This document shows positions 27,875-39,101 of a stretch of 43,730 nt of DNA, in pieces. The DNA is from a virus (taxonomy: Duplodnaviria; Heunggongvirae; Uroviricota; Caudoviricetes): the IMG/VR virus record IMGVR_UViG_646311924_000020, one strand, 5' to 3'. Position 1 is the stretch's first letter. Each line of letters begins with the position of its first letter. The translations under genes were made by a program, and so were the position numbers. Below the pieces are notes generated by a model. The model was not told the DNA's origin. It ran no database searches and saw only the letters and a list, made by a program, of their open reading frames with translations.

Positions 27875-27950
27875 TGGTGCTGGTTAACGGACTTGAACCG
27901 CTACCCATTCGCTTACAAGGCGACTGCTCTACCATTGGAGCTAAACCAGC
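27875..27950 (-). tRNA. tRNA-Thr (anticodon UGU)
   Basis: 76 nt cloverleaf folded by hand: acceptor GCTGGTT/AACCAGC, D-arm GCTC/GAGC, anticodon loop CTTGTAA, T-arm with TTCAAGT loop, discriminator A, encoded CCA. Confidence 0.75.
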
Positions 27951-27955
27951 ATATT

Positions 27956-28030
27956 TGGCGGGACAGCGTGGACTCGAACCACGATAAGAAGGTTAACAGC
28001 CTTCCGTAATGACCTTTATACGACTGACCC
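27956..28030 (-). tRNA. tRNA-Asn-like (anticodon GUU), non-canonical, possibly pseudo-tRNA
   Basis: 75 nt: anticodon stem GAAGG/CCTTC with loop CTGTTAA, T-arm CGTGG-TTCGAGT-CCACG, encoded CCA; but acceptor stem has a T-T mismatch and the D-stem is only 3 bp. Confidence 0.55.
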
Positions 28031-36281: not shown

Positions 36282-36343
36282 ACAAAAAATACATCTTGTG
36301 CATGGATGATTTTAGTACAGAGCGTAATAATAAGGGTATGAAA

Positions 36344-36997
36344 ATGAAATGGTATGAACTGGCTAGATCCAGAATGAAAGAGCTCGGCATAACTCAAGAG
36401 AAGTTAGCCGAAGAGCTTGGTATGACGCAGGGTGGAATTGGTCACTGGTTGCGCGGATCTCGTCATCCATCTCTTGACGAGATTGGTGTGGTGTTTAAAT
36501 ACCTTGGTATTGATAACGTCTCATTCAACCACGACGGTACATTTTCACCTGTTGGCGAATACTCATCTGCCCCCGTTAAAAAACAATATGAGTACCCTGT
36601 TTTTTCTCATGTTCAGGCCGGTATGTTCTCGCCTGAGCTTAGAACCTTTACCAAAGGTGATGCGGAGAGATGGGTCAGCACAACCAAAAAAGCCAGTGAT
36701 TGTGCGTTTTGGCTTGAAGTTGAAGGTAATTCCATGACCGCGCCAACAGGATCCAAGCCAAGCTTTCCTGACGGGATGTTAATTCTCGTTGACCCTGAGC
36801 AGGCTGTTGAGCCAGGTGATTTCTGCATAGCCAGACTTGGTGGTGACGAGTTTACCTTCAAGAAACTGATCAGGGATAGCGGTCAGGTGTTCCTACAACC
36901 ACTAAACCCGCAATATCCAATGATTCCATGCAATGATAGCTGTTCCGTAGTAGGGAAAGTTATCGCCAGCCAGTGGCCTGAAGAGACATTTAGTTAA
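36344..36997 (+). CDS. cI: CI-type prophage repressor (N-terminal HTH, C-terminal S24 LexA-like domain)
   Basis: HTH segment ([23 protein letters not shown]) and S24 motifs (GNSMTAP...FKKL); start chosen at ATG 36344 (7 nt after AAGGG); ORF-track start 36296 is a TTG. Confidence 0.85.
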
Positions 36998-37029
36998 CAG
37001 CCTCACCACTCTAAAACACACAACAATAA

Positions 37030-37057
37030 CCCGACCTTAGCGTCGGGTTTTCTTTTT
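37030..37057 (+). terminator. intrinsic terminator after cI
   Basis: Hairpin CCCGAC-CTTAGC-GTCGGG followed by TTTTCTTTTT, 33 nt after the cI stop. Confidence 0.6.
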
Positions 37058-37123: not shown

Positions 37124-37152
37124 TTGACTCAGTAAAGTACACATCGTACTAT
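37124..37152 (+). promoter_or_regulatory. candidate pL promoter (-35 TTGACT, 17 bp spacer, -10 TACTAT) with overlapping operator-like 15-mer
   Basis: Spacer and -10 contain AGTACACATCGTACT (37136-37150), an inverted-repeat-containing 15-mer near-identical to the one at pR. Confidence 0.5.
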
Positions 37153-37198
37153 TTAGCTATCAGCAGGAAGCTGGAAGCCAAACGGAACAGACTGGCAG

Positions 37199-37244
37199 GC
37201 TCTTTAAACAACGTCGAACACTCGACTACGTGGCTGAAAAGCCA
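37199..37244 (+). promoter_or_regulatory. candidate nutL (boxA plus boxB)
   Basis: GCTCTTTAAACAACG (boxA-like), small hairpin GTCGA-ACAC-TCGAC, then TGGC-TGAAAA-GCCA (GAAAA loop); located between pL and N. Confidence 0.5.
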
Positions 37245-37342
37245 GATCACCCAACCACATAAGCTGTGGGATGCAATGCCGAAGCAACCGTCTCAGGAGG
37301 GGCTTCGAGATTGCATCGCCAAAGTTTATTCGGGAGGAATCT

Positions 37343-37615
37343 ATGTCCAGAAAAACAGAATTTAAAGGAACCGCAGCTTCTCGCCGTAGAGCTCGTCGTG
37401 CAAATCTGCAAAGTCAGGAGGCGATCAGCTCCGACAAGCTACACAGGCCAACCCCTTCACGAGTGGTCTTGCAATGCAAGCGCAAACCAGCAATGAGAGC
37501 AGAAGTGATAACTCTGACAACGTTGACCAGAAAATATGAAGGTTCAACTTGTCTTCCGAACGTAGCCATTTACGCGGCAGGCTACCGGAAATCAAAACAA
37601 CTGACGGCGAGATGA
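37343..37615 (+). CDS. N: N-type antitermination protein (arginine-rich motif)
   Basis: 90 aa from ATG 37343 (GGGAGG RBS): MSRKTEFKGTAASRRRARRANLQSQEA...; first gene after pL and the nut-like site. Confidence 0.7.
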   Translation: MSRKTEFKGTAASRRRARRANLQSQEAISSDKLHRPTPSRVVLQCKRKPAMRAEVITLTTLTRKYEGSTCLPNVAIYAAGYRKSKQLTAR

Positions 37616-37743
37616 CTTGTGTTGGTCGCCAGAAAATGAAATTAGGCAGCAAACCACTTATTTGAGGTGAGATATGGAAGAAGAATTTGAAGAGTTCGAA
37701 GAGCATCCGCAGGATGTGATGGAACAATACCAGGACTATCCGT

Positions 37744-37944
37744 ATGACTACGACTACTGATAAAAATCAATGGTGTGGACAATTCAAGCGATGCAATGGA
37801 TGCAAGCTGCAATCGGAATGCATGGTTAAGCCTGAAGAAATGTTTCCTGTAATGGAAGATGGGAAATATGTCGATAAATGGGCAATACGAACGACGGCAA
37901 TGATTGCCAGAGAACTTGGTAAACTGAACAACAAGGCTGCCTGA
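37744..37944 (+). CDS. ral: Ral (restriction alleviation protein)
   Basis: 66 aa MTTTTDKNQWCGQFKRCNGCKLQSECMVKPEEMFPVMEDGKYVDKWAIRTTAMIARELGKLNNKAA, matches recalled lambda Ral. Confidence 0.85.
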   Translation: MTTTTDKNQWCGQFKRCNGCKLQSECMVKPEEMFPVMEDGKYVDKWAIRTTAMIARELGKLNNKAA

Positions 37945-37962
37945 TGGCGGCCTTTATTTTTG
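37935..37962 (+). terminator. intrinsic terminator overlapping 3' end of ral
   Basis: Hairpin GGCTGCC-TGAT-GGCGGCC (one G-U pair) followed by TTTATTTTTGG. Confidence 0.5.
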
Positions 37963-38009
37963 GCATAAACAACAGAATAAACACAGCACTGAATTATTTG
38001 AGGTGAGAT

Positions 38010-38480
38010 ATGACAAAATCATGGAGCGTACCTTTTCCTGAATCAGAAACTGAACATGATGGAATGCCTGTTTTCTGGAGATTCCAAGCGACAGTTGAAG
38101 AAGATGGAATCAAAATATTCGCACTTCAATATATAGCTTTTCATCAGACAGATCATTATGCATGGTTGGTTCCTGCGCATTGGATTGTTAATTTTAAACC
38201 AGCACCAAATCAGTGGTTACAGGAATGGAAACAAAGGAGAAATAGATATGCAATTAAGAAAGTAGCAAAAAATGCCGAAAGATCTTTTGCATTCCCGACG
38301 AAGAAACTTGCCATTGAAAGTTTATTGCGCCGGAAGAAGTACCATTTAATGAGAATCAAACAAGATTTGGCTGTTGTATCAACTCTTGTTGATGGGATGA
38401 AGAATATTGATACATCAATACCAGATATTGAATATAACTTTGGACACAACCAAGAAACAGAAAATTGGGTGTTTTATTAG
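38010..38480 (+). CDS. hypothetical protein (156 aa), accessory gene between ral and cIII
   Basis: AT-rich ORF with strong RBS GAGGTGAGATATG, no predicted membrane segment; no family recognised. Position corresponds to P22 gene 17 / lambda sieB locus. Confidence 0.55.
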   Translation: MTKSWSVPFPESETEHDGMPVFWRFQATVEEDGIKIFALQYIAFHQTDHYAWLVPAHWIVNFKPAPNQWLQEWKQRRNRYAIKKVAKNAERSFAFPTKKLAIESLLRRKKYHLMRIKQDLAVVSTLVDGMKNIDTSIPDIEYNFGHNQETENWVFY

Positions 38481-38584
38481 TACGAATAAGCACTGTGTAT
38501 TCATTCCAACGAGTGAATACACGGAGCAATGTCGCTCGTAACTAAACAGGAGCCGACTTGTTCTGATTATTGGAAATCTTCTTT

Positions 38585-38610
38585 GCCCTCCAGTGTGAGG
38601 GCCTTTTTAT
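38585..38610 (+). terminator. intrinsic terminator after the 156 aa gene
   Basis: Hairpin GCCCTC-CAGTGT-GAGGGC followed by CTTTTTAT. Confidence 0.65.
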
Positions 38611-38674
38611 ATGCATACCAATAACGCTTCACTCGAGGCGTTTTCGTTATGCAATCAAACAGAAGGAGCATCCT

Positions 38675-38845
38675 ATGCAACAGTTCGCTATTGCAGGGGC
38701 GGCATCGGTTCGCCCTTTCAACCCGATTTTATCGGTACAGCATTCACGAAAAAATATTTTAACCGGAGCAGACTTTAAACAACCAAGAATGAAAAGCTTG
38801 CTCGAAAAGCTTTGGGATATTTTGAAACAACAAGGCCGCCCATGA
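38675..38845 (+). CDS. cIII: CIII-like protein (FtsH inhibitor)
   Basis: 56 aa from ATG 38675 (AAGGAG RBS): MQQFAIAGAASVRPFNPILSVQHSRKNILTGADFKQPRMKSLLEKLWDILKQQGRP; N-terminal MQ-AIAG and central amphipathic LLEKLWDIL resemble lambda CIII. Confidence 0.7.
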   Translation: MQQFAIAGAASVRPFNPILSVQHSRKNILTGADFKQPRMKSLLEKLWDILKQQGRP

Positions 38846-39012
38846 GTTTTACAGATAACTGGTCAGACGAAGAATTCATTCGTCAGATGAAAGAATTAAT
38901 CGGTAACGAAGGAGATATTCATGTCACTTGCAACCACCGTGAAGGAGAGCAAGTTACAGAGACGCATGTACACGCAGCAGGCGTTAATGTATCGCCAGAA
39001 GGGAGATCGTGA
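38842..39012 (+). CDS. hypothetical protein (56 aa), kil position
   Basis: ATG overlaps the cIII stop (ATGA); small acidic protein; function by position only. Confidence 0.4.
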   Translation: MSFTDNWSDEEFIRQMKELIGNEGDIHVTCNHREGEQVTETHVHAAGVNVSPEGRS

Positions 39013-39101
39013 AGGTGTTCGCGTATTTTTAAATGCGGCAAAGACTGAAGTATTAAATCAGCGTTATTTCCTTGGGCCATGTCCATTCTGAGAACAATCA
39101 T

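Follow-up and report, generated by a model that had tools for sequence, protein, structure and literature searches.

A compact promoter-less cassette with an HK97 gp45 family gene in the early-left operon of lambdoid phages

Introduction

What is the role of a small, AT-rich gene that is found directly 3′ of N and 5′ of cIII in most of the lambdoid phages that carry it? We consider this question for a 156-codon open reading frame (ORF) located at positions 38010–38480 (+ strand) of the virus record IMGVR_UViG_646311924_000020, a 43,730-nucleotide stretch that we refer to as the window and that is 100% identical to a prophage of Escherichia coli O111:H- str. 11128. The initial annotation of this locus, made from the sequence letters, described an AT-rich gene with a strong ribosome-binding site (RBS) between ral and cIII, bracketed by terminators, and placed it at the ‘gene 17 / sieB locus’. 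Its soluble product was said to match no recognized family and was put forward as a candidate for an undescribed anti-defence or exclusion function.

Two issues are addressed here: (i) what the gene and the DNA that travels with it are and (ii) which function best fits their anatomy, distribution and predicted structure. The first has a firm answer. The gene belongs to the early-left accessory cassettes known from lambdoid phages, and databases contain it many times over as ‘hypothetical’. For the second, we arrive at a tentative proposal and weigh it against four alternatives.

Results

A member of the HK97 gp45 family

The ORF is intact, begins with ATG and encodes a protein that matches PHROG 1636 (function unknown) over its full length, covering residues 1–156 of a 156-position profile with an E-value of 1e-111. 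Pfam and NCBIfam gave no match, and PADLOC-DB returned 0 families at E-values up to 1. The initial statement that the protein belongs to no recognizable family thus holds for those three collections, but not for PHROG. The closest named relatives are HK97 gp45 (98.1% identity) and NP_049479.1 of 933W (98.7%), in each case over all 156 residues, and the ORF product is 100% identical to WP_000167579.1, a ‘hypothetical protein’ in NC_013364.

The gene is common. A tblastn search found the protein in 83 of 50,697 phage records, with 79 of the 83 at 95–99% identity; the carriers include HK97, 933W, BP-4795, Min27, Stx2-phage 86 and ∼50 other Stx-converting phages, where the gene is annotated as hypothetical, as ‘Gp45’ or not at all. 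Of 5426 complete E. coli genomes, 558 contain at least 80% of a 741-bp query made up of the ORF and its flanks, and the exact 156-residue protein occurs on at least 999 contigs. Five close copies have dN/dS values of 0–0.08. Homologues with 55–83% identity are found in Pectobacterium, Brenneria, Rosenbergiella and Salmonella phage NX263, and 42 columns of the alignment do not vary among Escherichia, Pectobacterium, Brenneria and Rosenbergiella. These data identify a genuine protein-coding gene that is under selection.

A profile search of 1.84 billion representative sequences identified 83 proteins at E-values up to 1e-3, nearly all of them 130–160 residues long, and a Pfam scan of all 82 members of the family alignment found no shared family. 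When 5.8 billion proteins were searched by profile for domain fusions, only single-domain proteins were recovered. Three apparent fusions were set aside, P0029 as a likely assembly chimera and P0063 and P0075 as repeat artefacts.

Edges and anatomy of the cassette

The ORF has a GC content of 36.1% (28.7% at third codon positions), as compared to 42–51% for the neighboring genes of the early-left (pL) operon, 45% for the flanking pL genes taken together and 47% for the whole window. Its Shine–Dalgarno sequence reads GAGGTGA, with the last base 3 nt 5′ of the ATG. The AT-rich composition and strong RBS reported initially are therefore borne out, as is the location between ral and cIII, since both neighbors are identified by PHROG profiles.

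The surroundings of the gene differ from those in its best known relatives. In HK97, 933W and H-19B, the gene lies directly after N. In the window, a module at 37674–37954 (+) intervenes, composed of a 28-residue ORF (37674–37760, +; PHROG 16060, 7e-19, function unknown), ral (37744–37944, +; PHROG scan, 3.8e-48) and a terminator at 37933–37954 (+) formed by a 9-bp stem followed by TATTTTT, with the ral stop codon (37942–37944) in its loop. The 28-residue product (MEEEFEEFEEHPQDVMEQYQDYPYDYDY) is extremely acidic, its ORF overlaps the start of ral and is preceded by the same strong RBS as the 156-codon gene, and the ORF may correspond to orf28 of lambda. The module is bracketed by a 19-bp direct repeat, TTATTTGAGGTGAGATATG, of which the first copy (37658–37676, +) is located 5′ of the 28-residue ORF and the second (37994–38012, +) holds the GAGGTGA sequence and the ATG of the 156-codon gene. 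The window contains exactly two copies of this 19-mer, where 0.03 would be expected by chance. HK97 and 933W have one copy of the junction, with N joined straight to the ORF156 homologue, and the sequence 5′ of the homologue in those phages is the sequence that is found 5′ of the 28-residue ORF here. We conclude from this arrangement that the orf28–ral–terminator module is an insertion relative to HK97 and 933W, and hence that the terminator at 37933–37954, which does overlap the 3′ end of ral as initially described, belongs to the ral module and not to the 156-codon gene. The 19-bp repeat looks like a short conserved junction for modular exchange.

The right edge of the cassette is marked by an intrinsic terminator at 38585–38610 (+), a GCCCTC-CAGTGT-GAGGGC hairpin (38585–38602) plus T-run, CTTTTTAT. 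This is the clean terminator of the initial annotation, and the HK97 record likewise marks a putative terminator after gp45. A weaker terminator-like hairpin in the cIII leader (38623–38642, +), detected by consensus scan, belongs to the cIII side, as its 933W counterpart is found after ssb and not after the ORF156 homologue. The region is rich in such elements, with seven terminator-like sites in 2.3 kb versus 1.8 ± 1.2 in shuffled sequences.

Between the ORF and its terminator lie ∼125 bp that encode structured RNA. Two stable hairpins occupy positions 38495–38564 (+), the first having a 12-bp stem (38495–38522) directly after the stop codon and the second spanning 38523–38564. The 203-nt region from 38478 to 38680 (+) has a minimum free energy of −67.4 kcal/mol, corresponding to z = −6.0 relative to shuffled sequences. 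A role of the two hairpins in mRNA stability or as a processing site is conceivable. An Rfam search gave no RNA family match in or around the gene, and the 3′ regions of the available copies differ so little that they offer no covariation.

Comparison of carriers indicates how far the mobile unit extends. Upstream, similarity to HK97, 933W and Bas106 begins at the second 19-bp junction, which forms the left cassette edge. Downstream, the window shares both hairpins and the terminator with HK97, 933W and phi367, and similarity to 933W ends just past the terminator stem; Bas106 is without the hairpins, and similarity to it ends at the stop codon. The two hairpins thus travel with the ORF, and what follows them is variable: cIII in HK97 and in the window, an Ea10-like ssb in 933W, gp17 in H-19B, a small ORF and then kil in phi367, and four hypothetical genes in Bas106. 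Based on these shared edges, the mobile unit consists of the RBS junction, the ORF, the structured tail and the terminator, with no promoter. We are nearly certain of this part of the interpretation, namely that the gene belongs to the HK97 gp45 family and is carried on a compact, AT-rich, promoter-less cassette.

Predicted expression from pL

PHROG scans place the gene in a lambdoid or P22-like pL operon on the + strand. A consensus scan finds a pL-like promoter (TTGACT-17-TACTAT; 37124–37152, +) as the sole sigma-70-like site 5′ of the gene on this strand, with no promoter-like site between it and the gene, and manual reading of positions 37945–38009 gave no acceptable −35/−10 pair. Downstream of the promoter, a nutL-like element can be read at 37199–37226 (+), where a boxA-like sequence, GGCTCTTTAAACAA, is followed by a GTCGA-ACAC-TCGAC hairpin that was also picked up by the terminator/promoter consensus scan. 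This element could provide a context for N-dependent read-through. The N antiterminator gene itself is located at 37343–37615 (+; PHROG 271, 9.7e-26), taking its start from the RefSeq call in NC_013364. In the identical O111 prophage, RefSeq also annotates a frameshifted ‘hypothetical protein’ pseudogene, which corresponds to 37143–37365 (+) and lies between pL and N. This call overlaps the nutL-like sequence and could be an artefact of annotation.

Transcription of the 156-codon gene would be expected to start at pL, and the position of the first terminator would then set its timing. In the window, that terminator is the one at the end of ral, so N, orf28 and ral would be immediate-early, and the 156-codon gene, lying behind it, would require N antitermination and become the first N-dependent, delayed-early gene. 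In 933W and HK97, no strong terminator is predicted between N and the ORF and the first one follows the ORF, so that the gene would be co-transcribed with N without antitermination and its product would be among the first phage proteins made. H-19B has the same order, N followed by the ORF156 homologue. Given its orientation along the pL strand and its position behind a strong terminator, the gene should be silent under cI repression, and the same is expected for the arrangement in HK97 and 933W. We infer this expression logic from the anatomy of the locus.

Relationship to other genes of the N–cIII interval

Several known genes occupy this part of lambdoid genomes. P22 gp17, which has a homologue in H-19B, is likewise small and soluble and is encoded in the N-to-cIII stretch of the pL operon, but gp17 is acidic and the 156-residue protein is basic. 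An alignment by hhalign of our 82-sequence profile with the H-19B gp17 homologue gave a probability of 0.8%, and homology was rejected. The H-19B record (AF034975.3) contains an intact, unannotated 156-residue homologue at 1125–1595, between N and the gp17 gene (1739–2050), which is followed by cIII. Because H-19B holds both genes in tandem, they constitute separate cassettes rather than alleles of one slot.

SieB resides in the membrane and is expressed by the prophage. In lambdoid phages, its gene occurs in much the same region, for example between N and ral in PhiR11_1, where it is on the opposite strand. In contrast, the gene studied here encodes a soluble protein, lies on the pL strand and has no detected promoter of its own, and the window contains no sieB-like gene. 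The assignment to a ‘gene 17 / sieB locus’ is thus not sustained on either count.

Ral offers a closer parallel in organization, being an early pL accessory gene with its own terminator in the same variable region. It is, however, a 66-residue protein, unrelated in sequence, that targets type I restriction-modification. The lambda Ea10/Ssb-like protein (‘ssb’ in 933W) is also encoded in the interval between N/ral and cIII and co-transcribed from pL; the 933W gene lies directly 3′ of the ORF156 homologue, but belongs to a different family and was not matched in the ORF156 profile searches.

The cassette as a whole resembles the morons of HK97- and HK022-type phages, a term reportedly introduced by Juhala et al. 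in 2000 for genes flanked by their own promoter and terminator. It shares with them an AT-rich composition (36% versus 45–47%), a single mobile gene, a terminator that travels along and sharp mosaic boundaries. It differs in that no promoter of its own was detected by consensus scan or manual reading, leaving the gene to rely on pL.

A confidently predicted fold with no solved counterpart

The product has a mass of 18.6 kDa, an isoelectric point of 9.07 and a grand average of hydropathy of −0.55. The highest mean Kyte–Doolittle hydropathy in any 19-residue segment is 0.71 and no membrane segment is predicted, in agreement with the solubility proposed in the initial annotation. Charge is distributed unevenly: residues 76–131 carry a net charge of +12, flanked by −3 in the N-terminal 18 residues and −5 in the C-terminal 25.

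Structure prediction, proposed earlier as a check on the gene, gave a confident model. AlphaFold2 with a diverse 82-sequence alignment reached a predicted local distance difference test score (pLDDT) of 95.1 and a predicted template modeling score of 0.82; a model built from 19 close homologues (pLDDT 53.6) was discarded. The predicted structure contains a four-stranded antiparallel sheet (strands 19–30, 33–46, 50–55 and 83–86), two short helices (58–61 and 66–74) and a 33-residue helix spanning residues 98–130, with both acidic tails ordered. On this model, the product is a soluble, single-domain α/β protein. Across the superfamily represented by the 82-sequence alignment, A101 is invariant and G33, T47 and K87 are nearly so; in the close family, K84, K87, R91, R107, K109 and R115 do not vary. 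Many subfamilies end in an aromatic-x-F-(D/E) sequence at the C terminus.

Comparison of the profile with PDB sequences produced a best E-value of 0.23, at chance level, and a fold search among solved structures returned no match to the model. The confident model thus points to a fold not represented in the PDB, no member of the family has a solved structure, and neither sequence nor fold revealed homology to a characterised housekeeping or structural protein. Three specific candidates were also considered. A GIY-YIG nuclease was rejected: the match to 1zg2 is at chance level (E = 0.39), there is no fold match, and in place of the candidate acidic residue, which is not conserved, the protein has Q46. 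An F-x-T-x-E-x-A motif recalls, at the motif level, the AP2 and integrase-arm-type β-sheet DNA-binding domains, which consist of a three-stranded sheet plus a helix (ERSFAFPTKKLA versus VWLGTFETAEEA); hhalign comparisons with one test sequence of each gave probabilities of 0.6% for an AP2 domain and 0.3% for lambda Int. Homology to orf184 of Silas et al., the gop-beta-cII trigger from a ral accessory region, was also rejected following a negative hhalign result.

Homologues in virulent phages and their neighborhoods

The family is not confined to lambdoid phages. Homologues were identified in the Ackermannviridae phage Erwinia Bue1 (hhalign probability 99.3%, 9e-21) and in the N4-like Delftia phage RG-2014 (97.5%, 9e-12), with weaker tblastn matches in N4-like phages of Pseudomonas and in Vibrio, Brevundimonas and Pseudomonas syringae phages. 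A structure search of BFVD returned 14 matches at E-values below 1e-3, all of them uncharacterised and N4-like phages among them. The family is common to temperate and virulent phages.

Gene neighborhoods were sampled singly, and a survey of species-representative genomes with the close-family alignment contributed 6 loci. In lambdoid phages, the neighbors include Erf or RecT together with Gam and KilR. Elsewhere the gene is accompanied by RecT/YqaJ or, at another locus, by RecE and a replication initiator; a further locus encodes DNA polymerase A, dCTP deaminase, a 3′–5′ exonuclease, a PD-(D/E)XK nuclease and an SNF2 helicase. The virulent-phage loci contain dCTP deaminase, or topoisomerase with dexA and dCMP deaminase, or rIIA/rIIB. 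Genes for replication, recombination and nucleotide metabolism therefore recur near the family, mixed with small unknown genes.

Other features of the window

The cI-type repressor ORF (36296–36997; PHROG scan) is separated from pL by a terminator at 37028–37049, with the pL-like promoter lying 3′ of both. On the other side of the cassette, cIII is found at 38675–38845 (+; PHROG scan, 1e-22), followed by kil/arf-like small ORFs, erf, ssb and abc2 (PHROG scans). A 56-residue ORF at 38921–39091 (+), MSLATTVKESKLQRRMY..., is identical to UDP0168 (AFH20475.1) of the screening library of Silas et al.; the accessible part of that report names no phenotype for UDP0168.

Outside the early region, a 95.6-bit match at 6022–6089 (+) identifies the Rfam sar RNA, known as an antisense RNA from the immI (ant) region of P22, and a P22-type tailspike with Head_binding and beta-helix domains is encoded at 2970–4907 (−). 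These two features mark the late and immI regions of the prophage as P22-like. An IS3-family insertion sequence is present in two inverted copies, at 15302–16515 (−) and 18493–19706 (+), which flank ∼2 kb in the virion-gene region. They are recognized by transposase OrfA (HTH_Tnp_1) and OrfB (rve) domains and by ALIL frameshift pseudoknots with identical scores at 16118–16234 (−) and 18774–18890 (+). The prophage is probably defective for particle formation.

The window also encodes tRNA-Thr(UGU) at 27875–27950 and tRNA-Asn(GUU) at 27956–28030, both on the − strand. Phage-encoded Thr(UGU) tRNAs are reported to counteract the P2 OLD tRNase defence (2026 preprint, 10.64898/2026.07.10.737580), and the prophage tRNA-Thr(UGU) could be a counter-defence element. 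The mention of HK97 in that preprint bears no relation to the gp45 gene.

Discussion

The anatomy of the cassette and the features of its product suggest the following course of events. Transcribed from pL, the protein would act during lytic growth and not in the lysogen. Its basic face may bind nucleic acid or a nucleic-acid-handling enzyme, and the benefit to the phage could lie in early survival, replication or recombination of its DNA, whether as host take-over or as counter-defence. Taken as a whole, from family identity and cassette through expression and product to role, this is the best explanation that we can offer, and we regard it as plausible while placing it somewhat short of probable. 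The functional element by itself, in which an early, basic accessory protein has nucleic acid or an enzyme acting on it as binding partner, is a tentative guess.

Several observations weigh against this proposal. The idea of nucleic-acid binding draws only on charge, conserved basic residues and gene neighborhood. The ordered acidic tails at both termini may mask the basic face, the sampled neighborhoods have no conserved partner gene in common, and the neighborhood signal may only reflect the crowding of small unknown genes in early operons. The promoter and terminator calls behind the expression scheme are consensus scans, not measurements. A literature search found no paper on a protein of the HK97 gp45 family and no reported function for any member, and string searches of the supplements of Silas et al., which cover 200 accessory genes, did not find the 156-residue protein.

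A stronger form of the proposal is that the HK97 gp45 family is an unrecognised, new-fold immediate-early counter-defence or take-over factor of lambdoid phages (those with Shiga toxin included), N4-like phages and Ackermannviridae, acting on a conserved host component for nucleic-acid handling or immunity. We consider this version speculative and, on balance, doubtful.

Of the alternatives, the one that survives best is a dedicated anti-defence protein that blocks a specific host immune protein by protein–protein inhibition, without binding nucleic acid. The gene is mobile and non-universal, it adjoins ral in the variable N–cIII stretch and it would be expressed very early from pL. To this extent the initial interpretation is supported, and the stretch is akin to the ‘Ral’ accessory regions of Silas et al., which have yielded counter-defence genes and triggers such as orf184. 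On this reading, one might expect an AT-rich mobile cassette that only a subset of lambdoid phages carry and whose product, like many anti-defence proteins, has a novel fold. The conservation of the protein is nevertheless very strong for such a role (dN/dS below 0.1), and it is common to virulent phages of Pseudomonas, Delftia, Erwinia and Vibrio, hosts with different immune repertoires. The literature search linked it to no defence system, and it is also missing from the Silas library as noted above. We therefore judge specific immune inhibition unlikely. Strong purifying selection and spread across differing hosts fit a general early-lytic function at least as well as strain-specific counter-defence.

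A role in regulating phage development, either as a modulator of transcription or antitermination or in the lysis–lysogeny decision with N and cIII, could be read from the basic character of the protein and from the location of its gene, immediately after N and ahead of cIII in most carriers. The homologues make this improbable: the N4-like and Ackermannviridae phages that encode them have no N/cIII system, the Pectobacterium homologue adjoins xis-int, and that of Salmonella phage NX263 heads a different early operon.

We assign a similarly low probability to a host-toxic take-over factor, which would follow a Kil-like logic and, soon after infection, shut off a process of the host, for example its replication or division. 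In early-left operons, the gene is co-transcribed with kil, gam, abc2 and others of this kind, which is consistent with this idea, as is a predicted arrangement for early expression and silence in the lysogen. However, the sequence points to no particular host target, and the stable carriage of the gene in ∼1/10 of complete E. coli genomes fits tight repression but is no argument for toxicity.

Superinfection exclusion or another prophage-expressed defence, with the protein serving as a SieB analogue or in exclusion escape to protect the lysogen, is very improbable and the least likely reading: although the P22 early-left operon includes sieB (PMC8022706), some lambdoid phages such as PhiR11_1 have sieB in the N–ral interval and the AT-rich composition and terminator are moron-like, a soluble product without a membrane segment or PADLOC match, encoded on the pL strand behind a strong terminator with no promoter-like site in the consensus scan and with homologues in strictly virulent phages, argues against the exclusion function initially suggested.

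The 156-codon gene is a well-defined candidate and not a discovery. It stands out by a confidently predicted fold that no solved structure matches, by the range of phages over which its family extends and by the very early timing of expression predicted for Stx phages. The gene is carried by 933W-type and many other Stx phages, by HK97 and by prophages in about one-tenth of complete E. coli genomes, and in most of the carriers examined it lies directly after N. In HK97 and 933W, where no strong terminator is predicted between N and the ORF, its transcription would accompany that of N within the first minutes after infection or induction. Assigning its function would therefore fill a gap in the early program of medically relevant Stx phages and, because remote homologues exist in N4-like phages and Ackermannviridae, would at the same time provide an annotation for a family that spans unrelated phage groups. 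Should a counter-defence role prove true, the family would represent a new structural class for that field.

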